A stretch of 64,000 nt of DNA from Candidatus Methanomethylophilaceae archaeon (GCA_944320495.1 CALUHR010000008.1:42249-106248); one strand, 5' to 3'; positions 20,958 through 62,976 are shown, counted from the first letter of the stretch. Translations and numbers: made by a program. The notes: a model not told the origin generated them from the sequence alone.

Positions 20958-20964
20958 GGAGTCA

Positions 20965-36056: not shown

Positions 36057-36725
36057 ATGACCGCAGGCGATTCTCTCGAGACCATGGCGGCTGGGGGAGA
36101 CCCAGATTCGCAGTTCCAGCTCGGCGTCCAGTACCTCTACGGCACCGGCGACACCCCCAAGGACGCCTCCAAGGCCGCCGAATGGTTCAGGAAGGCCATG
36201 GAGAGCGGACATGTCCCCGCCATCAGGGAGTACGGGATTCTCGTCGCATCCAGCGAGGGCGTCGAGGCCGACCCGGAGGAGGGGGCACGCATCCTCGGAA
36301 GGGCGGCCGACGAGCTCGACCCCAGCGCGATGTACCATCTCGGCCTGATGTACGAGAAGGGCATCGGCGTGCCCGTGGACATGCAGAAGGCCGTCAGGCT
36401 CCTCGCTTACGCGGCCATGATGGGCTATCCCGGCGCCGACATCGACGCACAGCGCATCGATGACATCCTCACCGAGGAGCGCAACAGGCGCCTGAAGTCC
36501 AGGCCCGTCATCAAGCTCATGCTCTCCGACGTGGACGTGGAGGCGGCCTGCTGCCCGAGGATGCTTGACGACCTCCTGGCCCAGAGGACCGTTTTCACCG
36601 AGAGCGAGGAGGGCCCCGCCCTGCTCGGCGACGACGCCCAGGGATTCGAGGCCGTCTTCCACGCGTGCCCCTACTGCGGAGCTCCCATCCAGATCGTTCC
36701 GAGGGACAAGCAGTACTTCGGATGA
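36057..36725 (+). CDS. Sel1-like repeat protein with C-terminal CxxC element
   Basis: SQFQLGVQYLYG, AMYHLGLMYEKG, CPYCG. Confidence 0.85.
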   Translation: MTAGDSLETMAAGGDPDSQFQLGVQYLYGTGDTPKDASKAAEWFRKAMESGHVPAIREYGILVASSEGVEADPEEGARILGRAADELDPSAMYHLGLMYEKGIGVPVDMQKAVRLLAYAAMMGYPGADIDAQRIDDILTEERNRRLKSRPVIKLMLSDVDVEAACCPRMLDDLLAQRTVFTESEEGPALLGDDAQGFEAVFHACPYCGAPIQIVPRDKQYFG

Positions 36726-37679
36726 TCGCATCCGGGCGGCCAGGAACTCGGCCGCCTCGGGGCATCCTATCTCGGATGACAGCCTGATCAGCCCCATGCC
36801 CTTGCGCTCGTCGGCTTCGATGCCCTCCCCGTTGAGGTACATCAGCCCGAGCATGAATATGGCCAGTGGATCCCACGATTCCGCCGCACCCCTGAAGAGG
36901 CTTCTGGCGGAGCCGAGGTCCCTCTCCACCCCTAAGCCTGAATAGTACATCATCCCCAGCGTGAGCATGGACTCGCGATCGCCGCGTTCCGCCGAGCATG
37001 ACAGCATCCGGGCGGCCAGGACCTCGTCCTTCGCGACGCCGTCGCCGTACAGGTAGCGGAGGCCGATCTCCCTCAGCGAGTTGGGCTCCCCGTGCGATGC
37101 GGCGATGCCGTACCACTCCACCGCCTTTGCCGGATCCTTCCCCGTCCCCTCGCCGGTCTCGAACATGCGCGCGACGTTGAACATCGCATCGACGTTGCCA
37201 TGGTCGGCGGATTTCGAGAAGAGGGCGAACGCCTCAGACCTGTCCAGACGTGTGCCCCAGCCGTTGTAGTACAGGATCCCTAGGTTGCACTGCGCGCCCG
37301 GATGGCCCTGGTCGGCGGCAAGTAGATACCACTTGGCGGCCTCCATCTTGTTGACCGGTATGCCGAGACCCTTGTCGCAGATGTAGCCGAGTCCGTACTG
37401 CGCCTCGGAGTACCCCTGGTCCGCTGCTTTGCGGTACCAGTGGATGGCCTCCGTCGCATCGGCCGGCATCCCGATCCCGTTGAGCAGGAAGTAGCCGTAG
37501 GTGTACTGCGCCTCGGCATATCCGGAACGGGCGGCATCGGAGATGAGGGAGACCGCCCTCTTCGGGTCCCTCTCGACGCCGTCGCCTTCGTAACAGCGTC
37601 TGCCCAGAATGTACTGCGCCTCGGGATCGCCGCGTTCGGAACGGGCGGTCAGCTCCAGGATGGAATGGCCGTCGGACAT
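36726..37679 (-). CDS. Sel1-like repeat protein
   Basis: About 8 Sel1 repeats, ends EAAEFLAARM-CGA abutting the convergent gene's TGA. Standard code overlaps about 900 nt of the opposite genes. Confidence 0.9.
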
Positions 37680-37836
37680 ATGACCATAAACCGACTATCT
37701 CCAATTAATGATGTCTGTCGAACTGGGACGCATCCATCGTTCCAGGATGGGACAGTCACCCATCGTCGGCTGATCGCACGGATCCCACGCGTCTTTCGAT
37801 GCAGAATCTATATGTCCGTACTCCATTCCGAATCCC

Positions 37837-38394
37837 ATGGCAGACCCACAGACCGAGGAGTACACCCTGGAGGAGGCCGCTGCGATCATAGAGGCGGCCA
37901 TCGACAGGAAGAAATCTGAGATTGAGTGCCTGCGGAAGCGCGCGAACCGCCTCAAGAAGGAGGAGAAGGTCAACGCCAACCGCCAGCTCGTCGCCTATCT
38001 CGAGGCTGACGTGACCGCATACACCACCGTTCTCGCCGACATGCGCGACGACGACGCCCTCCTCGAGGGTCTCGACCTGGACGCCGAGCCCGTGGAGGTC
38101 CCGGACGACTACCAGGACTACATCGACGGACTCTCCGCGGACGACCTCGAGAACGAGATGGACGCGGAGTCCATCCGCGCCGACTACTGCGACGCCGTCG
38201 TCGAGGAGATGTGCACCTCCATCGGCGAGCAGGCCCTCAGCTCCAAGAAGATGGTGAAGGCCCTCCTGGAGGACCCGTACGCACTGGAGCAGATCGGCGA
38301 GGTCGTGTTCTACGACGACTACCTCTACGACCTCTTCAAGACCATCTCCGCCGAGAAGGCTGAGAAGAAGTCCAAGAAGAAAAAGAAGAAGTGA
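37837..38394 (+). CDS. Acidic hypothetical protein with poly-Lys tail
   Basis: 185 aa, strong host codon bias, ends KKSKKKKKK. Confidence 0.8.
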   Translation: MADPQTEEYTLEEAAAIIEAAIDRKKSEIECLRKRANRLKKEEKVNANRQLVAYLEADVTAYTTVLADMRDDDALLEGLDLDAEPVEVPDDYQDYIDGLSADDLENEMDAESIRADYCDAVVEEMCTSIGEQALSSKKMVKALLEDPYALEQIGEVVFYDDYLYDLFKTISAEKAEKKSKKKKKK

Positions 38395-39089
38395 TCCCGG
38401 TGCCCGCAAGCAAGTACGAGAGGGAGCTGAGATTCATCGATTCCGAGGTCGCCAGGCTCAACCGCGGACTCAAGGACCTAGCGGAACGCATGCCCGACAG
38501 CCCTTCAGAGGCGGCCAGAAAGGCCGACGAGGTTCTGGGCATCCAGGACAAGATCGCCACCCTGATCGCCAGGAAGCGCGAGATCGAGGACTCCTTCATC
38601 AGGGCCGGGATGGACGTCCCCGACATCGGACGCAGCATGAACGCCACCGTCCACAACGCCGGGGGATTCGAGATCCACGGGACCCAGGAGGCGGAGACCG
38701 TGGCCGGCCTTAAGCCGACCCAGATGTCCATCGAGGGCATCAACGAGGACATCCGCAGCATCAACGCGGAGCTCGCCTCCATCGAGGACCGCCGGGTCGC
38801 CGCCGAGATCGAGGGCGACTCCGACGAGGTCCAGAAGCTCGACATGATGGCATCGTCCCTCCGTTCCAGGAGGGACTCCCTGATCCAGTCCGCCAGAGAG
38901 ATCCGCTCCGCCCCCAAGGAGGAGGAGCCCTCGCAGGTGAGCGGCGAGGATCTCGAGAGGATCGCCAGACTCGAGTCCGAGACGGCCTCCCTGCGCTCGC
39001 AGGTCTCCGACGTGAGGAACGGCCTGCAGGACGTCAAGGAGCAGCTCAGGCAGATCATGCTGGCCCTGGGCATCGAACCGGACGAATGA
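38391..39089 (+). CDS. Coiled-coil hypothetical protein
   Basis: GTGA overlap with the upstream stop; heptad-rich. Confidence 0.75.
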   Translation: MIPVPASKYERELRFIDSEVARLNRGLKDLAERMPDSPSEAARKADEVLGIQDKIATLIARKREIEDSFIRAGMDVPDIGRSMNATVHNAGGFEIHGTQEAETVAGLKPTQMSIEGINEDIRSINAELASIEDRRVAAEIEGDSDEVQKLDMMASSLRSRRDSLIQSAREIRSAPKEEEPSQVSGEDLERIARLESETASLRSQVSDVRNGLQDVKEQLRQIMLALGIEPDE

Positions 39090-41162
39090 TCGTCCCTCCG
39101 CGGCCTCGATGAGGCCGCGGATCAACTCCCCTTCCCTTGCGGACCAGAAGCCGACGTCACATACCACGACGAGTCTGCGTCTGGCCCTTGAGACCGCCGT
39201 GTTGATCACCCTTCTGCCCATCGGCGTCTCCGAGCTCGTGAACCTCAGGGGGACGTCCCTGTTCACGGTCCCGCTGTCCGCCACGCTGAGCACCACCGTG
39301 TCCCATTCCCTCCCCTGGGACCCGTGGACGGTCATCACGCAGTCTGAATACCTGCGCCCCACCTTGGACCTCAGGAGCCTGCACTGCGCCGTGTAAGGCG
39401 AAAGGACGCACACATCCGAGGGGTCTGGCGACGAAGCCTTCAGCAGCCTGGCTATGGCATCCGCCTCCGCCCTGTTCTCGCGGGTGTCGCGCTCCCCGCA
39501 GACGACGTCGATGCACTCTATCGACATGTCCGTCTCCGAGGAACCGGTCATGCCGTTGCGGTAGACGTAGCGGTCCAGGACCCTGGCGAGGGATTCCCCG
39601 AACCTCCTCGAATCTGTCAGGTCCCTGCGCACTGTGACCGAGAAGGACGGCCCGGAGCCGGAGATGTACTCGGCACGCAGGTCGATCAGGCCTCTTGTGA
39701 GGACGGTCTCGCAATGGAGGGCGGACATGTTCCAGATGAACGCATCGGAAAGCCATCCGCCCGACTGAGCCCTGTCCATGAGCAGGGCCTCGTCGAGCTG
39801 GGTCACCGGCGGAAGCTGCATGTGGTCCCCGAACATGGCCACCGGCACGCCGTTGGTGAAGAGGGCGAGCGCCTGCACCAGGCCACAGTATCCGGCCTCG
39901 TCGAGGAATATCCTGTCCACGTCGAGCTCCATCCTCCCGTCCTCGGGGGAGCCCTTCGGACGGAATCTGGAGATGAACTGGTGGGGCGTCGCCGCGATTA
40001 TCGGAGCACTGGCTATCCTGTTCCCGGTCGACCTGGACCTCAGCACGGACATCTCATCGTAGAGCCTGGAGATCTCCGCCGATATCTCCTCCGCGCTCCA
40101 CTCGCCGTACTCGGAGATCTCCGCCGCCGGACGCTCGCGGTCGAAGAGGGCGGAATGGAGCTATCTCGCGGCCTCCGACAGCGGTACGCCCTCCGACATT
40201 ATCGCGGCGGTCGAAGGGCGCATGGAAGCCACCGTCATTATGTCCCCGATGATGCGCTCCCTCTCAGGATCACCGTCGGCATACCCCTCCGCATCGTCCA
40301 GGATCCCGGCGGACGTCAGGTGCTCGAGCTGGGCCCTTACGGAATCGCAGGCCCTCTCGTAGAGGACCTCCTCGAGATTCCCGATGGACCTGGCACATCC
40401 GTCTATCCTCATCTGGGCCTGGTTGTCCTCGCACATGTCCGGATGCTCCGCGAGGAACCCCTTCGTCGGGACGCCCAGCCTGACTATCCCCTTCGGGACC
40501 CCGTCCTCGCCGAACGCCCCCAGGATCCCCCTCAGCACCTGCTCGACCGAGTTGTTGGTGGGTGCGAACACCGCGACCCTCTCACCGGCCTCGAGACAGC
40601 CGCGGATGCAGGATGCCAGAACGAACTGGGTCTTGCCCGTGCCCGGGGCCCCCCAGACATACGACATCGACGACGAGGCGACCGCCAGGGCCGCCGATTC
40701 CTGCTGTCCGGTCGGGACGCCGGGATATTGCGGCTCGACCGTGTTCTGAGGCTCGCCGGGGGCTCTGACGTAGGCCCCGTACCTGCGGTAGAAGTCCCCC
40801 GCGGCCAGTACCAGGAACTTCATGTCCGCGAGGACCGAGATCCTGGCACCCTCCACGGACATGACGCGGAGGACCTCGGCATCAGGCCTGACCACGATGG
40901 TCCTCGAGATCTCGTCGTACCTCGTGAACCCGGCATCCTGCTCGCCCAGGACCCTCTCGCCTATCCTGAGCAGGAGGCCCGAGGTGTCGCTGAGGCGGGC
41001 CGCCAGATGCAGTATCGCGAAGCCCTGCCTCACATCGGCGGAGGTCACCAGGGTCTCGGACATCCCCATCGGTGGATCCGTCACCCACTGCATGTCCTCC
41101 ATGTAGCGGTAGACGGCATCGGCCGATCCGGAGAACACCGCTGATATCTCTTCCCCATCCAT
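39090..41162 (-). CDS. Superfamily 1 (DNA2/NAM7/Upf1-like) helicase with in-frame TAG at 40161-40163
   Basis: Walker A WGAPGTGKT before the TAG; FLDEAG, GDHMQLPPV, SPYTAQ, TVHGSQGREWD, NTAVSRARRRL after it in the same frame; ends EAAEG-CGA. Confidence 0.88.
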
Positions 41163-41234
41163 GACGCCGTCTGCCGCAATGGGGATTTAAGCGGAACGGC
41201 GCAGGCTACACTCTTCGATATAGGGAGCGTAGCA

Positions 41235-41669
41235 TCAGGAGTAGAAGCTGGCCCAGTTCTGCTCGATGTCCTTGTCATCGAACTTGGGGACTCCCTCGGA
41301 GAAATCGTCCCAGTCCACGGGCTCCCTGGAGAGCACGACGAAGGAGTTGTTCCCTGTGTCGAACTTGATGGCGTCGGAGGAGACCATGATCTTGACGTTG
41401 AACAGCATGCTGATGTTCAGGTCCTTGTAGTCCCCGTCGGGGTCCTCGACGGAACGGTCCCTGCGCAGGCTGTTGATGCGGATCTTGCGCTCCTTGAACA
41501 GGCCCTTCACGACCTTGGTGGCCCTGTCGAGGTAGTATCCGTCGCCCAGTTCCAGCGACCAGTACTCGACGCCCGCCGCATCCGGGCCGACCTCGGCCTC
41601 CGTCCATCCGGTGTAGTCGTCCTTGCTGGTGCCAGCGTAGATCCTGTATTGAATCTCCTTCGAGATCAT
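41235..41669 (-). CDS. Hypothetical protein
   Basis: 144 aa, host-like codon usage. Confidence 0.65.
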   Translation of the reverse strand: MISKEIQYRIYAGTSKDDYTGWTEAEVGPDAAGVEYWSLELGDGYYLDRATKVVKGLFKERKIRINSLRRDRSVEDPDGDYKDLNISMLFNVKIMVSSDAIKFDTGNNSFVVLSREPVDWDDFSEGVPKFDDKDIEQNWASFYS

Positions 41670-41803
41670 CCCGTACCCTGCCTCTCCATGGATGTCCGAT
41701 ATTTAGCTCTTAATCGGCCCCATCCCGGTTTTCGATGGCCGTTATCCCGCCCCGTGAGTAACCGGGGCAATCATCATTATAGCGTCCTCCCGATACGGGT
41801 CGC

Positions 41804-42685
41804 ATGTTCGCGGACGCCTGTGGCAAGGTCTCGGAGTTCTCCAGACCTGTGGTCATCTCGACTAGGCATCAGGACGGCACCATCAAGACCGAATGCGGCA
41901 CGTTCATCGTCCTCAACCGGGACGGCTGGATAATCACCGCCGGCCACATGTACGACTCCTATGTGAAGTACCAGGGGGACCGCAAGAAGGCCGAGGAGAT
42001 CGAGGAGCTCAACGCCGCCCGCAGCTCCAGGCCCGGTGCCCCGTCGCAGCCGGTGAAGCTCGATCCCGGCATGATAACGAACCACTCCTTCTGGTGGGGC
42101 TGGGACGGCGTCCGCATCACCAACGTCTACGTCAACAGGCAGCTGGACATGGCCGTGGGAAGGCTGGAGCCCTTCGACCCCGAATGGGTCCGTGAGTATC
42201 CGGTCCTCAGGGACCCGGACCATCTCCGCCCGGGCACCAGCGTGTGCAGGTCCGGATACCCGTTCGTCAACATCACCGCGTCCTGGGACGACGCGACCTC
42301 CTCGTTCAGGATACCCAAGATCCCGATCAGGGACCTGATATTCCCCAACGAGGGCATACACACGCGGACCGTCGACCGCGGCAGGACCAGGGACGGCGAC
42401 TTCCGCATGCTCTACGTGGAGACGTCGTCGCCCGGGCTCAAAGGCCAGTCGGGGGGCCCCATCTTCGACAGGGAGGGGAGGATCTACGCGATGCAGGTGC
42501 AGACCATGCACATGCCCCTCGGCTTCCATCCCACCGTCGAGTACGACGGCAAGACCGTCGTGGAGAACCAGTTCATGAACGTCGGCCTCGGGGTCCATGT
42601 GGCCACCATCAGGGACGTCCTCGACAGCCGCGGCGTGAGATACGACGCCGAGGAGGACGCCGGGGGATACAGGATCGTGGGCCGA
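41804..42685 (+). CDS. Trypsin-like serine protease
   Basis: ITAGH, DMAV and GQSGGP triad motifs; ends CGA-TGA overlapping the next ATG. Confidence 0.85.
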
Positions 42686-43191
42686 TGACCGAACCGCTCT
42701 TCACCGTGTCGACGGCGTACACGCTGTCCACCTACCGTGACTACAACCGCGCCGTGCAGGCCGCCAACGGAGTCTACCGGAGGATCTGGCTCTCCGCCGT
42801 CATCTACATCGCGGCCGGCGCCCTCCTCTGCCTGCTCCTGGAGACGTGGATGCCCGCGCCGCTGTTCGTCATACTCGCGGCGGTGAACATATGGCTGAAC
42901 TTCAGGAACCTGAGGAGGGCGGAGGACTTCCAGTACCAGCAGGAGCAGCTCATCGGCACGGTGCGCTACGACTTCTACGACGACAGGATCGATGTCACCA
43001 CCACCGACGGTACGACCCAGAACCCGTACTCCGGCGTTCAGCGCGTCTACGAGACCGACAGGTCGTACCTGATCATGTTCGCGCCCATGTCCGGGGCCAT
43101 CCTCCCCCGCGAGGACTGCAGCCCCGAGCTCATCGAGTTCCTCGCTACACGGTTTAAGTTTGAAAGACTACGTTCCCCCCGTTCGATTTAA
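42685..43191 (+). CDS. YcxB-like membrane protein
   Basis: Two TM helices then YDFYDDRI..VYETDRSYLIM..ILPRE. Confidence 0.7.
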   Translation: MTEPLFTVSTAYTLSTYRDYNRAVQAANGVYRRIWLSAVIYIAAGALLCLLLETWMPAPLFVILAAVNIWLNFRNLRRAEDFQYQQEQLIGTVRYDFYDDRIDVTTTDGTTQNPYSGVQRVYETDRSYLIMFAPMSGAILPREDCSPELIEFLATRFKFERLRSPRSI

Positions 43192-43215
43192 ATCTTAACA
43201 TCCTAATAGCTAATC

Positions 43216-43518
43216 ATGGACGACTCCGATATCGAGCGTCTCTCGTTGATCGGAAAGGCGCTCTCAGATCCCAGCAGGATCCGCATACTCCTCAACTTCA
43301 GGGGAAGGACCCTCTCGATCTCCACGATGACGGAAGAGCTGGAGACATACCAGTCCAATCTCTCGTACCACATGTCCATCCTGGTGAAGGCGGGTCTAGT
43401 CACCCGTGTCGACACAGGCAAGTGGCACTATTACGCCGTTGACCCCGAGACCCTCGAGCTGGCTCGCAGGTTCATCACCCAGTGCTCCAAGCGCCCCCGC
43501 TCCCGCAGGCAGGAGCGA
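43216..43518 (+). CDS. ArsR/SmtB family transcriptional regulator
   Basis: KALSDPSRIRIL, QSNLSYHMSILVKAGLV, GKWHYY; CGA gives a typical ~100-aa size. Standard end 43791 overlaps the helicase start. Confidence 0.9.
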
Positions 43519-43558
43519 GGGCCAACTGTTTTTCTATTGGCTCGGATTCCGCCCGGGC

Positions 43559-45625
43559 ATGATGGGAATGTTCTGCCCCAGATGTCATGCCCTCGTGTCC
43601 CCGACGGATGCGAGATGCCGCTCCTGCGGCGCACCCCTGGACAGCCTGGTGGAGAGCAACCAGTCGGTCCTGGACGGCGTCGCCGAGAGGCCGAGGAGGG
43701 CGGAACCCGAGGTCACCGAGGTGAAGGGCGCCCCGTACATGCCATACGAGCCGCGCGGATGCCAGATGGACATCATCACGGACATGGTTAAGGCCCTTGA
43801 CTCCGGGAGGCACTTCGTCATGGAGTCGGGCACCGGCACCGGCAAGACCATCGTGTCGCTGGCCGCATGCCTCGACCACGCCTCCCGCACGGGAAAGACC
43901 ATCGTCTACCTCACCAGGACCATCTCTCAGAGCGACCAGGTGATGAGGGAGCTCCGCGCCATCTCCAGGATCAGGCCCGTATCGGGCATCACGATCACCG
44001 GCAGGGGGAAGTCCTGCCCGCTCTTCAGGGGCCTGAAGGACTTCGACTCCATTCCGTCGAACGTCCTCTCGATGATGTGCAACGACGCCCGCGAGAAGAG
44101 CCGCCACGGGAAGGCGGGGGGATGCAGGTACTTCGACCGCGTGGAGATGTCCCTGCCGCAGATCGAGTCATACGTCAGGACGAGGTTCCCCACCTCCGAC
44201 GAGCTGGACGAGTACTGCATCAGGATGCAGGTCTGCCCCTACGAGGCCAAGAAGGCGCTCATGAAGGGTTCTGAGGTGGTGGCCGCACCTTACGTCCACA
44301 TCCTCGACCCGGACATCAGGGACAGCCTCATGACCAACCTAGACAGGCCCGGGGACCCGAGATCCCTGCTCATCATCGTGGACGAGGCCCACAACCTCGT
44401 CGACGCGGCGAGGGAGAGCGAGACGTTCAGGATCGACCGCGCCCTCGTAGACGCCGCCGTGGACGAATGCTCCACGTTCTCCCACCAGCCGGAGGTCGGG
44501 GACAGGATACTCCTCTCCGAGTTCCTCGGGACCCTGAAGAGGGCCATTCGCGCCGCCGCGATCGAGCTCATCCCCATGGGAAAGGACACCGTCGCCATCC
44601 GGGACGACCGCATCGAGAGGACCATCATGGACAAGTTCGGACTGTCCCCGTCCGAGCTCCAGGTGGCCATCGAGGACGCCATAGACCTCGGCGAGGCCAG
44701 GACCGACAAGCTCCTCGACAGCGGGGAGAACCGCGTCTCCGACATACAGGAGGTCGCGGTGGCCCTGAAGTCATGGTGCGGAGCGGACTCCAAGCGCTTC
44801 GTCCGCACCATCCACGCCGACCGCGAGGGGGAGTTCCTCCGCGCGTACTGCATCGATCCCAAAGAGATCTCGATGTTCCTCAACTCCACATCGGGGACCG
44901 TCCACATGTCTGGGACGCTGCATCCCATGGACCAGTACGCGAGGGTCATCGGACTCTCGAGCAACTGCACGTTCCGCAGGTACCCATCCCCTTTCCCGCC
45001 GGAGAACCGCCTGGTGGTCTACACGCCCCATCTCACCACCAGATGGCAGGACCTCAAGGCCAATCCGGACATGAGGGCGAGGCTGGAGAGGACCATAGCG
45101 GACCTGTGCAACTCCGTCGACAAGAACACGCTCGTGTTCTTCACATCCTATGCCAGCATGCAGTCCATGCGCGGATACCTGGAGGAGCACATCCACAAAC
45201 GCCTCTACTGGGAGCAGTCTAGGAACAACCGCGCCAACGCCTCCGCGCTGTCGTCCTTCAGGGCGAGACGCGACGGGGTGCTCTTCTGCGTCATGGGCGG
45301 CAAGTTCGCCGAGGGCATAGACTTCCCCGGCGAGGAGCTGTGCTTCGCCGTGATCGTCGGCATCCCCTATCCCCCGCCGTCACCCGACCTGGACGCCATG
45401 TCGGACATGTTCGAGTCGCGCTACGGACAGGGCAAGGGTTTCGCCTACACGTCGTCCATCCCCGCCCAGAGGAAGCTCAAGCAGGCCATCGGGCGCCTCA
45501 TCAGGACGGAGACCGACCGCGGGATGGCCGTCATCCTCGACAGCCGCGCGTCCAGGTTCGCCAAGGACCTCGATGCGAGACCGTCGGACGACCCGGTGGG
45601 CGAGGCCGCCAGGTTCTTCCGCCGA
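43559..45625 (+). CDS. XPD/Rad3/DinG-type DEAD/DEAH helicase with N-terminal zinc ribbon
   Basis: ESGTGTGKT, Fe-S cysteines, VDEAHN, SGTLHP, EGIDF, QAIGRLIR; ends ARFFR-CGA. Standard TAA 45637. Confidence 0.92.
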
Positions 45626-45758
45626 GAGCGTGTCTAATGATAGCAACGTAACAGAACCATTCGTTCGGTGAAACGGATGATGCATGTACGTATGACATGT
45701 CACAATCGATCATAGTGATTAAGCAACGCGTATATAGGGGTCCGCGATTCGTCGGCGC

Positions 45759-46715: not shown

Positions 46716-46799
46716 TCGCATATGACCGTCACGAGTCTCGCTCAGAGATGAGAGATGAGAGGAGTAACCGCTCAAATATCCAGACCTCACTTTCCGAAC

Positions 46800-47147
46800 A
46801 TGGACTGCAAGACCATCGCCGTGGCCGTGGTTTCGATACTGATTGGAATCGGCATAGGTTATGTGGCATTCCATGAGAACGAGAACGTAGTCGAGTATTC
46901 CTACGGCACCGATAACAACTGGGGTGACATGGTGAGTTATGAGGTCTTCCATGATTCCGCCAAACCAGTGTGGGTAACGGCAGAGGTCGGTGGACAGAAA
47001 GTCATACTCAAAGATGGCGACAGGATTCTCGCCTCCCCAGGCGATAGCTTCTCGCTCACCTTCTCGAATCCGACAGATTACGGAATCGATGAGCTGAGGG
47101 ATCACATCACACTGTACTTTGACGGAATCGAAGGGAAGAGGTTATGA
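46800..47147 (+). CDS. Small secreted or membrane-anchored hypothetical protein
   Basis: N-terminal hydrophobic helix; lower GC3 than neighbours. Confidence 0.5.
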   Translation: MDCKTIAVAVVSILIGIGIGYVAFHENENVVEYSYGTDNNWGDMVSYEVFHDSAKPVWVTAEVGGQKVILKDGDRILASPGDSFSLTFSNPTDYGIDELRDHITLYFDGIEGKRL

Positions 47148-47709: not shown

Positions 47710-47793
47710 GCGGAGGTAGCCGAGCGGCCCAAGGCGCTGGTCTTGAAAACCAGTGGAGGATTCTCCTCGGGGGTTCAAATCCCTCCCTCCGCG
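47710..47793 (+). tRNA. tRNA-Ser (anticodon UGA)
   Basis: Acceptor GCGGAGG/CCTCCGC, anticodon arm CTGGT-CTTGAAA-ACCAG, long variable arm, GGTTCAAATCC T-loop; no encoded CCA. Confidence 0.95.
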
Positions 47794-48024
47794 CTTTTTG
47801 ATCAATCTGAGCGTATCGGGTGACCTGTAGGTACACTCCGCATTGTCAAAGAAAATGTCAGGCCCAGAGATGTCTCCCGATCGATGAATCGCGGATCGCC
47901 TCACTCATCCCTCGGGTGAGTGGTCCGCATACCGATCGCCGCAGAAGCGATTGAGTGCACAGAGCCTGTTCCCGGGTAGTCTACGCTGAATCTGTTATCG
48001 TCGGACGGATACGTCGGATTGCGG

Positions 48025-51726: not shown

Positions 51727-51970
51727 GGGATCGACACGATATCCGTCTCTTATAATAAATACGTTTAGAGTTGTTACGTCCTTAACCGAATCCGCGACTG
51801 TGCGTTTGGAATTTCCGTCACCATCGCAGCCGATTCGGCCATTTCATTGACGATATCAACATCCGATCTCATTCGCGGATGACTTTTGGGATTCAAACTT
51901 CATCAAATTAAAGACTTAGAAGATTTTGCAGTTTGTAAGATTTATAATGGATGAAGACGATTGAGACCTC

Positions 51971-54486: not shown

Positions 54487-54507
54487 GGGGACGAAGCCCT
54501 CCCGCCT

Positions 54508-55500
54508 TCAGCCCTTGGCACCGGCCGTCAGGAGCATCTCGACGATCTCGGTGAAACCGGACTCCGAAGCGTAATGCATCGCGGTGCGTCCGTCGTTATC
54601 GGCGGCATCGGGGTCCGCCCCGCTCTCGAGCAGTAGCGAGACGAAGTCGTTGCGCCCGTTGCGGGCCGCGAGGATCAGCGGGGTGGATCCCGAGCCGTTC
54701 TTGGCATCCACATCCGCTCCGGCGCTTATGAGCGCCCTGCCGATGTACTGGTTGCCGGCTGATGCCGCAAGGTGCATCGGACGGTCGCCCGTGTTCAGGC
54801 TGGCCGATGCGTCAGCGCCCGCTCCGAGGAGAAGCTCCACGATGCTCAGGTTGCCGCGGTGGACTGCCAGGAAGAGGGCGCTCTCCCCGTCGTCGTTCAG
54901 GGCGTTGACATCCGCTCCCGACTCCAGCAGGACGCGGACGACCTCGCCCTGCGAGTTCCAGCATGCCTGGTGGAGGGGCGTGTTGCCCGACGAATCGGTG
55001 ACGGAGGGTGATCCGGAACCCGCGGCGAGCGTGGATACGAGCCCCTTCAGACCCTTGGACGTCGCGATATCCATGACGGTGTGCCCGTCGTTGTCCGCTA
55101 TGGACGGGTCCGCGCCGTTCTCCAGCAGGAGCTTGGCGGCGTCGACCTTGCCCTCGGAGGCCATCGCCATGAGCGGCGTCCTTCCCTGGCGGTCGGCGGC
55201 GTTGACGTCGGCGCCGGCATCCAGGAGCATGCGGATGACGTCCTTGTTCCCGCTCCTCGACACCATATGGAGCGGCGTGGTGCTGTCGTTGGAGCACGCG
55301 CATGCATCGGCACCGTTCTCGATCAGCATGGAGACCAGGTCGCGGGCGCCCTTCTGGCTGGCGTAGTGGATGGCTGTGAATCCGGAGGGGTCCCTCTTGT
55401 TCACGTCGATCCCGCCCTTGGCGAGCAGGGCCTGCGCCACACCCTTCTGTCCGTTCTTGCATGCGTTCAGGAACATGTTGTCCATCTGTGTCATCATCAT
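54508..55500 (-). CDS. Ankyrin repeat protein
   Basis: About 9 canonical repeats (GFTAIHYA, GRTPLM, GNTPLHQA); start is one of three tandem ATGs. Confidence 0.92.
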   Translation of the reverse strand: MMMTQMDNMFLNACKNGQKGVAQALLAKGGIDVNKRDPSGFTAIHYASQKGARDLVSMLIENGADACACSNDSTTPLHMVSRSGNKDVIRMLLDAGADVNAADRQGRTPLMAMASEGKVDAAKLLLENGADPSIADNDGHTVMDIATSKGLKGLVSTLAAGSGSPSVTDSSGNTPLHQACWNSQGEVVRVLLESGADVNALNDDGESALFLAVHRGNLSIVELLLGAGADASASLNTGDRPMHLAASAGNQYIGRALISAGADVDAKNGSGSTPLILAARNGRNDFVSLLLESGADPDAADNDGRTAMHYASESGFTEIVEMLLTAGAKG

Positions 55501-55955
55501 CCCTCCCTGTGGAACGTCATCAGACCGAATGCCTCCAGCGGTGCGGCGATGCGGCGGGCCTCGTCGGTCTCGCCGCAGTCCGTCAGGCAGAGGCAGTACA
55601 GCCATCTCGCCAGCAGACCGGCGTAAGTGGGATTGCATCCGGGCATGGCCGGATTCATGGGCACCGGAGACATCATACCGGAGATGAGCGCCTCCCCGAC
55701 GGGATCGAACGCCCTCTGCGGGACGCCCTCGGTCAGGCGGCGAAACGCCAGGCCGGAGAGCTCCATGGCCTCGTCACCGCGGCCTGCGGACCTCATGCAG
55801 AATGCCTTGTTGTAGATCGTGCAGGCGTCGTCGGTGGCATCCGCCCTCTGGAGGATCATCCACGCGCCGGGGAGGTCCCCTGCCGCCATCATCTGGTAGG
55901 CGGCGGAGCCGTCGATGGTTGCCTTCGTCTTCACATCGCTGTCGAGGAAACCCAT
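55497..55955 (-). CDS. Hypothetical helical (TPR-like) protein
   Basis: Own ATG at 55955 with GAGGTG RBS directly after the upstream CGA. Confidence 0.7.
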   Translation of the reverse strand: MGFLDSDVKTKATIDGSAAYQMMAAGDLPGAWMILQRADATDDACTIYNKAFCMRSAGRGDEAMELSGLAFRRLTEGVPQRAFDPVGEALISGMMSPVPMNPAMPGCNPTYAGLLARWLYCLCLTDCGETDEARRIAAPLEAFGLMTFHREG

Positions 55956-55964
55956 GCGAACACC

Positions 55965-57179
55965 TCGGACCATCAGCTCCATCACCGATTCCATGCCCGC
56001 GGAGGCCGCCATCTCGCCGGCGGTGACCCCCTTATCGTCGGGTATGTCGTATCTGGCGCCCTTCTTCACGAGCAGCCTGGCCGACTTCTCGTCCCTCCAG
56101 GAGATCGCGTGGTGAAGGGCCGTCCTGCCGTGCGAATCGCAGGCGTCCAGTGCGGCGCCTGCCACCACGAGGGGCTTGACCACGGCCCCGTGGCCGTTGG
56201 AGACGGCCGCCATCAGAGGCATGGTGCCGTCGTTCATCGCGATGTTCGGATCCGCCCCGAGGTTCAGCAGGGCCTCCGAGAGCCCGCCGTCCTGGTAGCG
56301 GTAGGATGTCAGCACGAGGATCAGAGGGGTCATGCCCCTGTCGTCGGCTACGTCGAGGCATCCGACCTTCGACAGTATGGCGATCTTGCGTGAAACTACA
56401 GCCTCCATGCCCGGCACGGATTGCCATTGGCGGCAGACGCTGACGGGGGGCTGCATGACCGCGTAGTGCGCCGCCGTGCGTCCGGAGTTGTCTGTCCGGG
56501 ATGTGTCCGCACCCCTGCCGATCAGCAGATCGGCGGACGCATCGTCCCCGATGAGACAGGCGGCGCAGAGGGGCGTTACTGAATCGAAATCCACCGCGTG
56601 TCCGTATCCCTGACGGGCCTCCGAACCGGGTGCGTCTGGATCGGCGCCCGTGTCCAGGAGCGCCTCGGCCAGATCCCTGTGTCCGAAGAGGACCGACAGG
56701 TGCAGGGGCGTGGCGCCGTATGCGTTGCAGACCATCCAATCTCCGGCATCGCCGGCGAGACGGGCCACGGCGGCCATCTCGGCCTCGCGGTCCCCCGCCC
56801 ACCCGGACCTCTCCATGGAGGCCAGAAGATGGAGGGCGTTGGAACCGGCGCGGTTGCACGATGTCAGGTCGGCGCCCGCCTCGGACAGACCCTTATAGAC
56901 CTCAGGACGGCAGATGCAGTGGGAGGCGCACATCGTCGGCAGCGTCTCCCCGTCGGGGAACCTGACACGGAGATCGAAGCCCCTGCCGGCGAGCATGCCG
57001 ATGAAATCGGTCGCCCGATCGGATTTGAGGGCCCTCTCGATCAGGCCCTCGGCGGCGTTCGCCTCGTCATCGTCATCCATGTCGAATCCTGATATCATCT
57101 CGGCAGCATCCGAAGCGGCCTGCTCCGCCCTGCCCTGGAAGAAATCCAGTTCGATCCTCCTTATCGCATCCCCATCCAT
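55965..57179 (-). CDS. Ankyrin repeat protein
   Basis: GATPLHLS, GRTAAHYA, GMTPL, GRTALHHA; ends VMELMV-CGA. Confidence 0.87.
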
Positions 57180-57198
57180 TATCGGCACCCCTTCGGAA

Positions 57199-57807
57199 TC
57201 GTCTCTGCACAGCATCCACCCTCAGGCCCGAGACCAGTTCGACGAGACGGTCCACCTGGATGTCGATGGCCTCATCCACGGCCTCCCCGTAGAGGAACGG
57301 CAGCGAATGCTTGCCCGTCCGTCCTATCCAGACGATCGACATCAGCATGTTATAGAACACACGGGGATCGAGACGGCTGACCGGGACGCCGAGCAGATTG
57401 AGGACCTCGGCGAAGAGCACGATGCGGTCGTTCTTGAATCCGGCGAACTCCTCGTCGCTCAGCAGCGTCCTGATGTACGTCTGGTCGTCGAAAGTGGCGA
57501 TGAACCATCTGCCGGACAGCAGATCGTCCAGGGTGGTCCTCAGACCGTTGTCCGCGCCGTAGTTCCAGACGTTGGTTCTGAAGCATCCGAGCATGTCCTC
57601 CGACTGGAGGTGGAACATCTCGATTATCAGGGCGGCTTTCGACGGGAAGAACGAGTAGAAGAACGTCTTCGAGATCCCTTCGGGAAGATAGATGTCCTCA
57701 AGGCTGGTCTCCCTGAGACCCTTCTCGGCGAAGACCTCTGCGGAACGCCTCAGCATATTCATGCGGATGGCGTCGCGTTCCTCCGCAGTGTACGCCTTCC
57801 TGGACAT
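57199..57807 (-). CDS. TetR/AcrR family transcriptional regulator
   Basis: FAEKGLRETSLEDI..GISKTFFYSFFPSK; CGA end gives about 202 aa. Confidence 0.88.
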
Positions 57808-57898
57808 CGCGTTTGATATCGACGCCTGCGGTTAAAGACCTTCGCATCGTATGCGTATTTATCGTCGGATACGGGGGCCGAAGCCCCGCATCCATGGT

Positions 57899-58948
57899 TC
57901 AGTACGGGTTGGCCTCGGAAACCTCGACCATGGCCCTGATGTTCTCTATCGGCGTCCCATATGGGACCGCGCAACCCGGACCGATGATGAATCCTCCGCC
58001 CTCACCGGCCTCGTCGAAGCATCTCTGGGACTCGCGCCTCACATCGTCGGCGGTCCCGCTCATGATCACCGATACGGGATCTATGTTACCCACGATGGCG
58101 CTCCTCCCCCTGAGGGCCTCCTTCGCGGCCCTCATGTCGACGGCATGGTCGAGACTGAATGCGGCGGCGCCGACCTTGGCGAAGTCCGCCAGCATCGGGC
58201 CGGTATCACCGCAGATGTGGACCATCGTCGGAGCCCCGTAGCGGCTCCTCAGATGGGACACGATGGAGATCAGGTTCCCCATGTTGTACTCCCTGAACAT
58301 GTTGTCGTCGATCATGCTCGCAGATGATACCGGATCGGTGCACACCACATAGTCGGCATCGAAGGACTCGAGCTCCGCTGAGACGATGTCCCTGCATAGC
58401 GCTGCACCCTTGGCTATGACCCTCTTGGCCTCGTCCGGGGCCATGAGCATGTCCATCAGAAGGCTCTCCGCCCCTCTGAGGTACGAGGCGACGGTAAGCG
58501 GCCCCTCGCACCAGGCCGGAGCCATAGCTCCCTCGCATCCCCTGCCCACGGCGGCAAGAGCCTCGATCACGTACCTGTGGAACATCGGCGAGTCCTTCTC
58601 GTCGAACGGATCGTACAGCGGCTTGGCGTCCACATCCTCCGGACTGTTGTAGTAGGCGTTCTTCAGGGACCCGGGCTCGTTCTCCGGGAGCTTTATCTCG
58701 ACTCCGGGGAGGTCCATGAAGATGCCCTTGGTCTCCAGGGGACCGAAGAAAAGGTCCGCGCCCGTGTCGGCCACCCACCTCCTCATGATCTCCGTGATCA
58801 GGGCGGGGTCCTCCCTGCACTCCCTGACGGTGTGGCCGGTGTAGCTGAGCATCGCGCTGTTGCCGAAGTCGCAGACAGGGGCCCTGTCGGGGATCTCGCC
58901 CTTGAACACAGCAACACAACGCTCCTTGGAATCCATCCTGACGGTCAT
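57899..58948 (-). CDS. MtaA/CmuA-like methyltransferase (uroporphyrinogen decarboxylase fold)
   Basis: DRAPV, EGPLTVA, VHICG, GNIDP, GPGCAV (Zn ligands H-x-C ... C). Confidence 0.8.
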   Translation of the reverse strand: MTVRMDSKERCVAVFKGEIPDRAPVCDFGNSAMLSYTGHTVRECREDPALITEIMRRWVADTGADLFFGPLETKGIFMDLPGVEIKLPENEPGSLKNAYYNSPEDVDAKPLYDPFDEKDSPMFHRYVIEALAAVGRGCEGAMAPAWCEGPLTVASYLRGAESLLMDMLMAPDEAKRVIAKGAALCRDIVSAELESFDADYVVCTDPVSSASMIDDNMFREYNMGNLISIVSHLRSRYGAPTMVHICGDTGPMLADFAKVGAAAFSLDHAVDMRAAKEALRGRSAIVGNIDPVSVIMSGTADDVRRESQRCFDEAGEGGGFIIGPGCAVPYGTPIENIRAMVEVSEANPY

Positions 58949-59104
58949 GGTGATACCCGACACGATGATTCGTCGTCTGACGTATTTATAGTACGGATTG
59001 CGGACATCACAAGACTGCGACTTGAGTATGGACGATTGGTCCACGAAATCCTTCCGGATCGGAAGGCTTGGTATCCAGACGTCTGATTCGAGAAAGTTAT
59101 AAAT

Positions 59105-59145
59105 CCCGCCTCGGGGGCGGGTGCCGCCGGAAGACCCGGCGGCTT
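59105..59145. terminator. Double hairpin downstream of mscS
   Basis: cccgcc-tcgg-gggcggg and gccgccgg-aagac-ccggcggc. Confidence 0.5.
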
Positions 59146-59150
59146 GTTTG

Positions 59151-60755
59151 TCACTGCCCCTCGGGGGTGGTGTCGTCGTCCTTGCGCTTGCCGTCGCAGG
59201 GGGTCTGGACGATGATGTCCAGCTTGTTGAACGGGATCTCGATGCCGTTCTCCTCGAACAGCTGGAAGATCCTCTCCCTCATCTGCCCGGCGTAGGTTCC
59301 GTTGCTGTCGAAGTCGTCGACGTAGGCGGCCAGCCTGAGCTCGATGGACGAGGACAGGAAGTTGGTGAGCCTGGTGGAGGGCAGGGATCTGGAGCCGTCC
59401 TTGATCACATGGGGGTGCTCCATCGCGGCCTGAACCATCAGCTCCTGGGCCTTCTTCAGGTCGCTTCCGTAGGAGACGGTCATGTAGACGTAGGTCCTGG
59501 TGTCGGGGTTCTCGGCGGTCATGTTGACGATGGTTCCGCCGGAGACGATGTTGTTGGGGATCGTTACGACCTGGTCCTGGTCCCAGTTGTCGAACTCTGT
59601 GAACATGAGCTTGACCTTCCTGACGATGTAGACCTGCCCGCCGATGTTCACGAAGTCGCCCCTCTTGAACGGCCTGGTGGACAGGAGCACGATTCCGGAG
59701 AAGAACTGGTTGAGGATGTTCTGAGCGCCGAGCGTGATACCCAGGGTGATCACTCCAGCGCTGAGCAGTATGCCCGTCAGGTCCACGCCGAATATGGCGA
59801 GGATGCCTGCCACCGCGGCGATGCAGATCACGATCTTGCCGATCATCTTGAACAGCGGGATGAGGGACGAGTCGATGCCCGAGTCGGTGCCGCGCTCCAC
59901 TCCGCGGAGCACCGCGCTGATGATGAACACGTAGACGGTCCAGGCCATCATGGCGCCGATGATCAGATACAGGACGCCGGAGATGGTGCTGAACGCGTCC
60001 CTGATCTCCGGGCTCACGCCCAGGATGGTGAGGCACTGGTTGAGCGCCAGAACAGCGATGAGGGCGACGACGAGGCTGGTGAGGTTCTTGCGCACCTTCC
60101 TCCTCTCGCCCTCGGACCCCTTCCCCGTGAATATGCGGGCGAAGAGGGGGATGAACACGAGGCACACGGCGTAGGCGATGATGATCCAGACCACCAGGGT
60201 GACCAAGGCGGTGACCCACTCGGACCCGAGGACGCCGTCGAGAGTGTTCGGGAACATGCCGAGGAACTTGTTGTCGCCGTCGGCGGAGTAGAATGCGGAG
60301 GTCACCGAGATGTCGGCGGTGACCGTCAGGGTGAAGGGCTCGACACCGTCCTCGAGGTCGGTGAACGTGAGGTTCACCGTGGCGGTCTCGGTGGGGCTGT
60401 CGTCGTACCTGTCTATGGACACGGTGACGTCGACCATGGCAACCTGCCCGGAATCTGTGAGCCTGTCGGGCATGAGCATGTCCTTGTTCGACGTCGCGGT
60501 GACATCCACGCTGTCGGAGCTGCCTTCGGCGTCCACCGTCAGCGACAGGTAGCAGTCGGATGTGTTGTACACGTAGATGATGAACGAATCGCTGCCGCCG
60601 CTCCCGATCTCCATCGAGAGGTGATCGCCCGAGGCGGATCCCGGCAGCGTGATGACGATGTCCTCCGGCGTCGCGGACTCAGCGTCGGATGCCAGGGGCA
60701 CGACGAGGAACGCGGCTGCCAGGATGACGGCCAGGACTGCTGTCCTTTTGAACAT
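59151..60755 (-). CDS. mscS: Small-conductance mechanosensitive channel family protein with N-terminal exported domain
   Basis: GITLGAQNILNQFFSG, RPFKRGD, TIPNN; signal-like N-terminus. Confidence 0.88.
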   Translation of the reverse strand: MFKRTAVLAVILAAAFLVVPLASDAESATPEDIVITLPGSASGDHLSMEIGSGGSDSFIIYVYNTSDCYLSLTVDAEGSSDSVDVTATSNKDMLMPDRLTDSGQVAMVDVTVSIDRYDDSPTETATVNLTFTDLEDGVEPFTLTVTADISVTSAFYSADGDNKFLGMFPNTLDGVLGSEWVTALVTLVVWIIIAYAVCLVFIPLFARIFTGKGSEGERRKVRKNLTSLVVALIAVLALNQCLTILGVSPEIRDAFSTISGVLYLIIGAMMAWTVYVFIISAVLRGVERGTDSGIDSSLIPLFKMIGKIVICIAAVAGILAIFGVDLTGILLSAGVITLGITLGAQNILNQFFSGIVLLSTRPFKRGDFVNIGGQVYIVRKVKLMFTEFDNWDQDQVVTIPNNIVSGGTIVNMTAENPDTRTYVYMTVSYGSDLKKAQELMVQAAMEHPHVIKDGSRSLPSTRLTNFLSSSIELRLAAYVDDFDSNGTYAGQMRERIFQLFEENGIEIPFNKLDIIVQTPCDGKRKDDDTTPEGQ

Positions 60756-60929
60756 GCTCAGATGTAGCTCTCACGGTTAAAATGGGTTTCCCAGCATCCG
60801 AACGCGATTCCGGCGGTAAACGACCGAATCGTTCAATACACCGACGACAATCGGGCTTGCGGGATCTTCCGGATGATGAGGAACCGAGGCTGACCCGTGA
60901 TGAGCCCTATGAGTCCTGACGGGGTCCCA

Positions 60930-61466
60930 TCGCTGCTGCGAATAGTCCGACATACCGGTGTACCCCATGAAATCGGACAGCTTCATCCCGTTCTCCCATC
61001 TCATGATGTAGTACCCGCTGTCCGAGACCTCCAGCTTGGGCAGCCTGCGGTACAGCACGCTGTGCCTTCCCCTGTAGGCGTGGTCCGTGGGTATGGTGAA
61101 CAGACGCCACGGGTCTCCGCGCTGGGACTTCAGCCGGAAGGCGTAGATCGGGACGAGATGCGAGCGGCAGCAGTCAGCGAGCATGATGTCGGCCTGCTCC
61201 GTGAGATGCTGGTTCTTGCTGAAGTGGAGGACGCTGTCCCCGGAGCTCTTCACCTCGATGGGGAACGAGAAGTCCCATCTGAGAGCCACCAGGTCCACTC
61301 CAAGGGATCCGGCGGCGCGGATGACCATGAACGGGTCCGTGAGCATCGTCTGGTAGTTCGCCTTCTCCATGGCATCGCAGGTCTTCACCATCTTAGCTAT
61401 GGCCTTCTGGTCGCCCGTGAGGAGGGACTTCAGCTCGCGCTCGTAGACGTCGCCCGGTGGTGCCAT
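60930..61466 (-). CDS. Hjc-like PD-(D/E)xK Holliday junction resolvase
   Basis: YERELK, RAAGSLGVDLVA, IEVKS; ends DYSQQ-CGA. Standard end 60777. Confidence 0.75.
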
Positions 61467-61656
61467 GATGGTTGTCGATTCCCGATGCCATATTTAAAGA
61501 GAACAAGGGGGGTGCAGCGAAAACCCCCCTCCCTGGCGATCAAGAGATGATCTTGACAATCCTTTATCTCCCGATGTCAGATATCGTACCGAGGGATGCA
61601 TGGATGATCGGAACCACCGTCACATTCGCAAAGATGCACACTGGAGGGAGGCTCCG

Positions 61657-62280
61657 ATGCCGACCTGCCCCAAGTGCGGAGCCTACAACCCGGACAGTTA
61701 CGAGTTCTGCTCCAGATGCGGCGAGATGATGTCGCCCGTCGAGATGGGCGCACCCGTCTCCAGGAGATACGCCGCGGACCGTCCCGCTCTGCGCTACCTG
61801 CTCATAGTCCTGCAGATAGTCCCGTGCGTGCTGGGACTCTACCTGCTGTTCGGCACGAGGCTCGACATCACCGGCTTCTACGGATTCTTCTCCGATACGA
61901 TGTCCATAATGGAGATCCTCGACCAGGGCTGGTACCCCACCAGCATCTCCGCGTCCGGATTCACCATCATCTTCTGGATATCCGCCATACTCTTCATCGT
62001 GGGCCTCTCCGTCCCGGTGTTCCACATATTCGGATACGTCATGACCCTCGGAATGGCCATGGGCATGTCGGAGATGTACGTGTTCGGCTCCGACTCCATC
62101 ATCATAGTCGGGGCGGATGTCGGCGGCATGGAGATCCTGGCGGTCCTCGGCCTGCTCATGGGGATCGCGGCGCTGCTCCTGTGGTTCGCCGTCGTCGTGC
62201 GCGGACCCTGCGCCAGCATGCCCCTGAAGCTGAGGCTCGCATACGTGTGGACCGGCAGGGTCGGTGAGAGGGAGAGGCGA
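61657..62280 (+). CDS. Zinc-ribbon membrane protein
   Basis: GGAGG RBS, CPKCG..FCSRCG, four TM segments; ends GERER-CGA. Confidence 0.8.
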
Positions 62281-62976
62281 TCGCCTCGAGGACCTGTCCA
62301 CGACCCTGATGCTGTCCACATCGACCCCGCAGTCCCTGAAGATGGGATCCACGATGCGGGTGCTGTGGGCGATGTAGCTGGAGTGGTCGGCGCGCTTCAT
62401 GATGCAGAGACGACCGTCCTGGACGGATCCTGCTATGAGCTCGGTGTCCTCCCTGCGGATGCAGTCCCTGCTTCCGGCTATGACCGTCACAGGGCACGTG
62501 ATGCGCGCCAGGTCCTCCGGACGGATGTCCGGCTCGGTGAGCATCATGCGGACCAGAGGCTCGTCCCCGTGGAGCAGCCTCGTGAGGGTCATGCCCTTTA
62601 TCATCGAGGGGCGGGTGTTCGCCCCGCAGACGAAGAGCCTCGAGGGAACATCGGGGTGCTCCATCGCGAACAGTAGTGCCACGATGCCGCCGTCGCTGAA
62701 CCCGCATATGATGGGGTCCTCGATCCCGAGCTTGCGGATGAAGTCGTGGAGGTCGTCCGCCATGTCGGCGTAGTGGTACTCCCCGTCGAGCGGCGGGGAG
62801 CTCTGACCCTGGCCGCGGGAGTCCACCAGATACACCGTGAACGCCTGCTCCAGATAGTCGACGGCGCGGTCGAAGATCGTATGGTCCTCGCCGTTGCCGT
62901 GGAGCATAATCAGCGCCGGACCCTTCTTCCCGCGGACCTCGTAGTAGATGGACACGCCGTTGGTTGTTACCCTCAT
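62281..62976 (-). CDS. Alpha/beta hydrolase
   Basis: LHGNGED, DSRGQG, GFSDGG nucleophile elbow; ends DRSSR-CGA. Standard code overlaps the whole convergent gene. Confidence 0.9.

Follow-up and report, generated by a model that had tools for sequence, protein, structure and literature searches.

A probable weak CGA stop codon in a genus of Candidatus Methanomethylophilaceae archaea

Why should facing genes end exactly back to back, and why should they do so at CGA, which in the standard code specifies arginine? This question was raised by a stretch of 64,000 nucleotides (nt) of DNA from a Candidatus Methanomethylophilaceae archaeon (GCA_944320495.1, CALUHR010000008.1:42249-106248). The whole stretch is called the window in the following; the genome it belongs to is a 1.77-Mb assembly with 61.5% GC and carries the genome label G000. 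A first-pass annotation of the window had described convergent genes that meet directly at CGA triplets, and it had implied that CGA terminates translation and that the long overlaps predicted under the standard code are artefacts. This view was supported by all tests that were run. CGA is very probably a weak extra stop codon in the genus of this organism, and no longer a general arginine codon. When CGA stops translation, facing genes end back to back, instead of overlapping by hundreds of bases.

Gene ends at CGA in the window and in the genome

Four sites of the window were inspected, and the features found there are included in Table 1. At two of them (36723-36728 and 39087-39092) the hexamer TGATCG was confirmed, i.e., a plus-strand TGA directly abuts a minus-strand CGA. 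At the third site (62278-62283) the hexamer is indeed CGATCG, and both convergent genes end in CGA within a palindrome. At the fourth site (20955-20967) the two CGA ends are 7 nt apart, as had been described. The overlaps under the standard code had been put at about 170 to 900 nt. For the three abutting pairs they were 906 nt, 585 nt (coiled-coil gene and helicase gene) and 1113 nt (Zn-ribbon gene and hydrolase gene), and the range was thus exceeded at the third site. The 906 nt of the first pair arise from the frame of the minus-strand Sel1-repeat gene, which under the standard code extends to position 35820, antisense through its neighbor.

In each CGA-ending gene at the four sites the Pfam domains end shortly before the CGA. 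Every Sel1 repeat of the minus-strand gene at the first site precedes the CGA, and the AAA_12 match of the helicase stops at profile position 193 of 195, 21 residues ahead of the CGA. For the aldo/keto-reductase gene the CGA end at 20965-20967 requires read-through of an in-frame TAG at 21202-21204. The genome encodes PylS (260.8 bits, above the cut-off) and McrA, which together indicate a pyrrolysine-using methanogen that reads TAG as sense. The Fer4 domain of the reductase comes after the TAG, and a paralog at 15888-16967 of the window aligns to residues 36-393 of the reductase across the TAG position without a stop. Also the helicase gene has an in-frame TAG (40161-40163), which lies inside the AAA_11 match, and genome-wide the coding signal persists past most TAG codons.

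The behavior of CGA in the whole genome was analyzed with 656 standard-code open reading frames (ORFs) of at least 300 codons and coding-type composition, which were divided into deciles of about 33,700 codons each. In-frame CGA was found 6 to 8 times per decile in the middle of the ORFs, versus 189 times in the last decile. A codon log-odds score that had been trained on ORF middles dropped from +0.82 to -0.87 straight after the first CGA in the second half of the ORF (122 ORFs). Ten control codons (CGG, CGT, AGA, CAA, TTA and five others), which included codons as rare as CGA, showed no such collapse, and their scores were near or above zero. The coding signal thus ended at CGA and at no control codon.

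CGA could instead be merely a very rare arginine codon, with extensions and overlaps that are real, or the pattern could be an artefact of assembly or base calling. TTA, CAA and TTT are indeed equally scarce in the middle of the ORFs. However, the 25-fold pile-up at 3' ends and the collapse of the score are confined to CGA, the extensions are not conserved in orthologs, and many genomes of the genus that were assembled independently show the same behavior of CGA, which a relative of similar GC content does not. The probability of this explanation is therefore very small.

When genes were called with CGA as a stop, 1662 genes were obtained at a density of 86%. The stops were TGA in 1172 cases, CGA in 409, TAA in 52 and TAG in 29, which gives CGA a share of about 25% of the gene ends (25 of the 57 called genes in the window); these numbers are approximate, because the caller is a crude codon-score caller that cuts ORFs at CGA by construction. 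The analysis of standard-code ORFs and the comparison of orthologs are independent of the caller. Good coding in the same frame after a CGA end was seen for only seven of the 409 genes; in three of the seven the coding belongs to the following gene, which has its own start, and two of the seven are low-scoring. Inside conserved genes CGA was absent, with two exceptions that are described further below, codon 78 of the aRF1 gene and the linker of a GmhA-GmhB fusion.

The first-pass annotation had proposed to compare the overlaps of convergent pairs with and without CGA as a stop. The genome contains 247 convergent pairs, and a CGA end is involved in 139 of them. Overlaps of more than 30 nt are found in 83 of the 139 under the standard code and in only six if CGA is a stop, and the median gap changes from -61 nt to +7 nt. 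The latter distribution matches that of the pairs without CGA ends, of which 4 of 108 overlap. A gap of exactly zero was found in 29 of the 247 pairs, whereas the neighboring values that occur between 1 and 12 hold only one to six pairs each, and CGA is involved in 28 of the 29 zero-gap pairs. Overlaps in codon register are scarce, with one or two pairs each at -6, -9, -12, -21, -33, -45 and -84, and out-of-register pairs cluster at overlaps of 11 and 14 nt.

A palindromic or mobile element at the junctions was considered and rejected. The 14-nt palindrome occurs only at 62274-62287; the symmetric half-length is 9 nt at the lone TGA/TCA junction (the slash marks the boundary between the two genes) and 2 to 4 nt at the other 27 zero-gap junctions. 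The hexamer CGATCG was not over-represented in the genome (692 observed versus 958 expected).

CGA also takes part in start-stop overlaps of genes in the same direction, which supports the CGA stop independently. Among 239 co-directional pairs with a CGA end 49 have the junction CGATG, and among 862 pairs with a TGA end 259 have ATGA and 17 have TGATG. A gene that ends in CGA cannot form ATGA, and thus CGATG takes over this role. A relative with the standard code, G025, which is introduced below, has just 23 overlaps of -1 in total.

Further CGA ends were noticed in the window. Two serine-recombinase genes (17062-17835 and 17835-18692, plus strand), each with a Resolvase and a Recombinase domain, are both CGA-ended and overlap by -1. 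Many Sel1, TPR and ankyrin repeat proteins are encoded around them, the surroundings are non-syntenic in relatives, and the region is possibly a mobile or accessory island. An ankyrin-repeat gene on the minus strand ends at CGA 55965-55967, and a gene of 152 codons starts in the same frame three codons later; the standard code joins the two into one product of 572 amino acids (55497-57215).

Table 1. Genes, junctions and other features treated in the text. Positions are those of the window, unless a contig of genome G000 is named.
Feature	Position	Strand	Remarks
Nre (DNA-repair-related) gene	7904-9193	+	CGA end 9191-9193; Nre_C ends at residue 428
GNAT acetyltransferase gene	20352-20957	+	CGA end 20955-20957; alternative ATG start 20268
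Aldo/keto-reductase + 4Fe-4S gene	20965-22161	-	CGA end 20965-20967; start uncertain (22161 or 22053)
Radical-SAM gene	32738-34426	+	CGA stop within CGATG junction
CGATG junction	34424-34428	+	CGA shares its A with ATG of next gene (34426-35097)
Sel1-repeat gene	36057-36725	+	TGA end 36723-36725; alternative GTG start 36045; Pfam Sel1 3e-23
Sel1-repeat gene, 317 amino acids	36726-37679	-	CGA end 36726-36728 abuts TGA of the facing gene
Coiled-coil protein gene, 232 amino acids	38391-39089	+	TGA end 39087-39089
SF1 helicase gene, 682 amino acids, AAA_11 + AAA_12	39090-41138	-	CGA end 39090-39092
Zn-ribbon protein gene	61657-62280	+	CGA end 62278-62280
Perfect 14-nt palindrome GAGGCGATCGCCTC	62274-62287	.	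Centered on the stop-stop junction of the Zn-ribbon/hydrolase pair
Alpha/beta-hydrolase gene, 231 amino acids	62281-62976	-	CGA end 62281-62283
aRF1 gene	G000:C2:85942-87135	-	Outside the window; single in-frame CGA at codon 78
GmhA (SIS)-GmhB (HAD phosphatase) fusion	G000:C13:193621-194700	-	Outside the window; linker codon 186 is CGA
tRNA(UCG)	G000:C13:413317-413390		Non-canonical anticodon arm

Orthologous gene ends and the origin of the abutment

Orthologs were used to locate the gene ends independently. First, the Nre gene was compared, which is better conserved than any other CGA-terminated gene of the window. Directly after the C-terminal residues RRIEDYY, six genomes of the genus have CGA, the remaining copies of the genus have TGA or TAA, and Nre of seven other families terminates one residue later, at TAA or TGA. 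Within the gene no in-frame CGA was present in about 20 copies of the genus, versus one to seven in nine of 12 outgroup copies.

The next example was the alpha/beta-hydrolase. Long C-terminal extensions that are conserved in orthologs had been named beforehand as the observation that speaks against a CGA stop. They were not seen; of the 470 amino acids of the standard-code product, the hydrolase orthologs match residues 1 to about 231 only. Their stop is TGA or CGA at the corresponding place, and the standard-code extension is matched by none of them. The closest ortholog ends with VVYRFAR and TGA, versus VVDRSSR and CGA in this genome; in G009 the codon homologous to the CGA of the hydrolase is TGA.

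As a control, G025 was chosen, a standard-code relative from the same order and another family with 58% GC, and its whole genome was analyzed with the identical pipeline. Its genes stop at TGA (1053), TAA (269) and TAG (226). CGA occurs 2.7 times per 1000 codons, is distributed flat along the ORFs, and the score is 0.66 before and 0.62 after it; score and distribution show that CGA is an ordinary arginine codon in G025. Between the two genomes 198 reciprocal best hits are strictly co-terminal, and in 24 of them CGA replaces a canonical stop, which in G025 is TGA in 18 cases, TAA in three and TAG in three. Taken together, CGA stands at the position of a canonical stop of the orthologs in Nre, in the hydrolase, in TruD and the partner of pheS (see below), and in the 24 genes that are co-terminal with G025. 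A preferential replacement of lost TAG stops by CGA was also considered and was unsupported; the share of CGA is 11-12.5%, irrespective of whether the outgroup has TGA, TAA or TAG.

The control genome also clarified the exact abutment. In G025 36 of 271 convergent pairs have zero gap, and 32 of these are TGA/TCA, compared with the 29 of 247 in this genome. The idea that the abutment was created by the code change was rejected, because the 36 zero-gap pairs of G025 are built from canonical stops. The same spike at zero in a standard-code genome shows that the back-to-back ends were inherited and are not a product of the CGA stop. Overlaps of 4 nt with a shared stop (CTAG or TTAA) were found in 31 of 271 pairs in G025, but in only two of 247 pairs here, and this near-loss fits with TAG being no longer a stop.

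The pair at 62278-62283 is not suited to follow the history of a junction, because the Zn-ribbon gene adjoins the hydrolase gene in no relative that was examined; therefore, the history was followed at the TruD and pheS junctions, which are conserved. The TruD junction is TGA/TCA in three outgroup genomes and in G013, CGA/TCA in G009 and G018, and CGA/TCG in this genome and G012. In letters, gactacTGA is followed by tcagacgatcat in G013, the same tcagacgatcat follows CGA in G009 and G018, and CGA is followed by tcggacgatcat in this genome. The flank gacgatcat is identical in the five TruD junctions of the genus other than that of G012. The series shows the T-to-C re-lettering of stops directly. 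The pheS junction is TGA/TCG in the group of G000, and five other members of the genus have an in-register overlap of 39 nt.

How the abutment itself arises may be explained by the codon register. The same-register antisense of a gene rich in G and C at third codon positions would be nearly devoid of stop triplets, since the codons TCA, TTA and CTA are seldom used. With so few antisense stops, each convergent gene must terminate before it enters its partner. Loss of spacer would then drive the two stops together, and abutment would be the limit of this process. With the standard code the resulting junction would be TGA/TCA; once CGA terminates, T-to-C changes would be tolerable on either strand and would yield CGA/TCA, TGA/TCG and CGA/TCG. 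The low number of in-register overlaps in this genome agrees with this explanation.

Conserved read-through sites, the release factor and tRNA(UCG)

Two genes outside the window retain CGA as a sense codon. The first one is the gene for the release factor aRF1, which is a single gene; Pelota is the second eRF1-like hit in each genome. The CGA at codon 78 corresponds to the conserved Arg78, which is located 17 residues past the end of the NIKS motif. In 16 of 17 genomes of the genus it is present as the only in-frame CGA of the gene, and its context, NCT CGA CTN, is also conserved. G005 has AAG at codon 78 and one CGA elsewhere in the gene. In all 12 outgroup genomes codon 78 is CGC, CGG, CGT, AGG or AGA, and never CGA. 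The second one is the GmhA-GmhB fusion, in which the linker codon is CGA in 12 genomes of the genus, a codon for Arg or Lys in G016, G012 and G005 as well as in the outgroups, and TAG in G017. Because GmhB lacks a separate start codon, the CGA in the linker must be read through.

These two sites also bear on a further explanation, namely that C-to-U editing of the mRNA turns CGA into UGA, so that the ribosome meets a normal stop. The creation of stops from CGA by C-to-U editing is known in plant organelles, and it is in the sense of C-to-U editing that the term 'CGA stop codon' is used in PMC10983754 and PMC11499134. It would fit that CGA and TGA alternate at homologous positions and differ by exactly this change. 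However, CGA is among the commonest trinucleotides of this genome (97,784 when both strands are counted, most of them within genes but out of frame), and an editor that is blind to the frame would recode thousands of NCG-A codons; moreover, the CGA of Arg78 in aRF1 and that of the GmhA-GmhB linker must be sense. Editing is therefore hardly credible. A frameshift to a stop at CGA, as proposed for mitochondrial AGA/AGG, was rejected, because neither NCG (-1) nor GAN (+1) forms a stop.

The aRF1 protein itself differs between the genus and its relatives. Three substitutions, S56A (QSSNIKS to QASNIKS), R65M and T119A (PITTFLYRC to PITAFLYRC), were found in 16 of 16 sequences of the genus and in none of 12 outgroup sequences. 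The motifs NIKS and YxCxxxF of eRF1/aRF1 form the codon-reading surface. S56A directly precedes NIKS, R65M follows it, and T119A precedes YxCxxxF.

The genome carries a full set of tRNAs, anticodon UCG included; a whole-genome scan with ARAGORN placed a tRNA-Ser(TGA) gene in the window at 47710-47794 (G000:C8:89958-90042). The tRNA(UCG) was searched for by pattern and then with a covariance model. Its anticodon arm is altered in both subclades of the genus. In one subclade the pair 31:39 is mismatched in ten of ten aligned tRNAs, with covariation at the remaining four pairs of the stem. The second subclade has C at position 33 and C.C at the pair 27:43. The tRNA-Arg(UCG) of five outgroup families is canonical, and the acceptor stem and the D-loop of the genus differ from it as well.

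A mechanism can be proposed on this basis, although only tentatively, with a probability somewhat below even. CGA would have a dual meaning: by default it would be a stop, read by the altered aRF1 (S56A, R65M, T119A), and it would be read inefficiently as arginine by a weakened tRNA-Arg(UCG). The aRF1 of the genus would have lost UAG and would accept C as well as U before GA, and it would compete at CGA with the weakened tRNA. The cell would exploit both meanings. By read-through, the CGA at codon 78 would give a negative feedback on the level of the release factor, and the cell would set its own aRF1 level in this way; the CGA in the linker would yield both GmhA and the GmhA-GmhB fusion from one frame. 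The change of CGA may have accompanied the loss of UAG as a stop.

The main rival to this mechanism is that CGA is effectively unassigned. The poor tRNA(UCG) would stall the ribosomes, and rescue would occur via Pelota/ABCE1, with drop-off and hydrolysis of the peptidyl-tRNA, and not via aRF1. The non-canonical anticodon arm in both subclades and the presence of Pelota in each genome would agree with it, and the avoidance of CGA by highly adapted genes is as expected of a costly signal. But stalling seems too costly for a quarter of the genes, and the 49 CGATG overlaps resemble the classical coupling of termination and reinitiation. In addition, the genus-specific substitutions in aRF1 adjoin NIKS and YxCxxxF, and the CGA at codon 78 can be understood as feedback only if CGA is a target of aRF1. 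Stalling and rescue are thus unlikely, albeit less so than the other two alternatives.

CGA and TGA are not used evenly as stops. The share of CGA among the stops decreases from 42% in the lowest to 9% in the highest quartile of codon adaptation, and a tandem TGA or TAA directly after the stop was found for 5.9% of the CGA stops, versus 2.6% of the TGA stops. It is likely that CGA is a leaky rather than an absolute stop, weaker than TGA, which is a correction to the earlier reading. The share also depends on the junction: zero-gap junctions reach 71% and -1 overlaps 74%, versus 12% at C-termini with strict conservation and 27% elsewhere. Expression level as the cause was rejected, as the codon score leads to an expectation of 0.24-0.29 versus the observed 0.71-0.74. 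Likewise, the bases at +4 and +5 alone are insufficient, the share after TC or TG outside of junctions being 33-36%. On one reading, the CGA ends were formed, or formed anew, once the codon had been reassigned, and selection maintains the old TGA ends. This reading is derived from the genome-wide ratio of the trinucleotides CGA and TGA, which is 65:35.

Several points weigh against CGA as a stop and against the proposed mechanism, in addition to the approximate gene counts. The search for the tRNA(UCG) covered 19 genomes of the genus and was successful in 16; it was not found in G006, and for G014 and G017 only BLAST was used. The tRNA shows the apparent identity elements of an arginine tRNA, A20, C35 and G36. 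CGA thus has a competing cognate tRNA, which a typical stop codon lacks. Its retention means that CGA is not unassigned and that termination cannot be complete. The substitutions in aRF1 could equally reflect the loss of UAG recognition tied to the use of TAG for pyrrolysine, and that the single aRF1 would read CGA is suggested by sequence alone. Furthermore, the enrichment of CGA at tight junctions is not explained by the proposed mechanism.

Comparison with known codes and meaning for the genus

Sense-to-stop changes are known from organelles, and they resemble the present case in that an amino-acid codon of the standard code marks gene ends. Organelles with such codes have tiny genomes with a handful of genes, and the cognate tRNA has usually been lost. 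In contrast, a cellular genome of 1.77 Mb with about 400 affected genes is concerned here, the tRNA is kept, and there are conserved read-through sites. The organelle examples are collected in NCBI tables 2 (AGA/AGG, vertebrate mitochondria), 22 (TCA, Scenedesmus mitochondria) and 23 (TTA, Thraustochytrium mitochondria), and cases from green algae are described in PMC6821328.

In Genetic Code 34 all TAG codons of certain archaea encode pyrrolysine, and TAA and TGA are the two stop codons (Kivenson et al., bioRxiv 10.1101/2024.09.30.615893); CGA is not mentioned in that paper. The genome analyzed here is similar to Code 34 in its pyrrolysine machinery and in the presence of TAG inside conserved proteins. 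It differs in that CGA ends about 25% of the genes, and the set of stops would be TGA, CGA and TAA.

CGA was found to be absent from recognizable domains in two archaeal assemblies from hydrothermal vents, and a stop function was raised as a possibility (Melnykov, bioRxiv 10.64898/2026.04.02.715157). It was left untested in that study, as Codetta and KACI cannot infer stops. The vent archaea are another lineage from another setting, CGG is Trp, and tRNA(UCG) is absent; here, CGG is sense and tRNA(UCG) is retained. In addition, the CGA stop is supported here by orthologs and by gene architecture.

The aRF1 gene invites a comparison with bacteria. Bacterial RF2 (prfB) autoregulates its synthesis via an in-frame UGA, from which the ribosome escapes by a +1 frameshift. 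In both cases the gene for a release factor carries an early in-frame copy of its own, here proposed, stop, which is conserved in the clade. The difference is that the frame of aRF1 continues through CGA; no frameshift is needed, and the escape would be read-through as arginine. Context-dependent and leaky stops of ciliates and trypanosomatids (PMC4967479) and tRNAs with an anticodon stem of 4 bp (PMC13092985) are further related cases. They have in common with the present one that one codon is both stop and sense and that the anticodon stem of a tRNA is altered, but the direction was from stop to sense there and is from sense to stop here. A full-text literature search revealed no paper that establishes a CGA stop in any cellular genome.

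If CGA terminates translation in this organism, a sense codon has become a stop in a free-living cell; in the literature searched, such changes are established only for organelles. Public annotations of the genus that use tables 11 or 34 would then be wrong for about a quarter of the proteins. The errors would be false C-terminal tails, false fusions and suppressed calls of antisense genes, and all four sites of the window are examples. The statistic of convergent genes is a simple detector of hidden stop codons in GC-rich genomes that does not need an alignment. The route of the code change would be testable, as a changed release factor, a retained but decaying tRNA and two conserved read-through sites are found together in one genus, with close standard-code relatives as controls.

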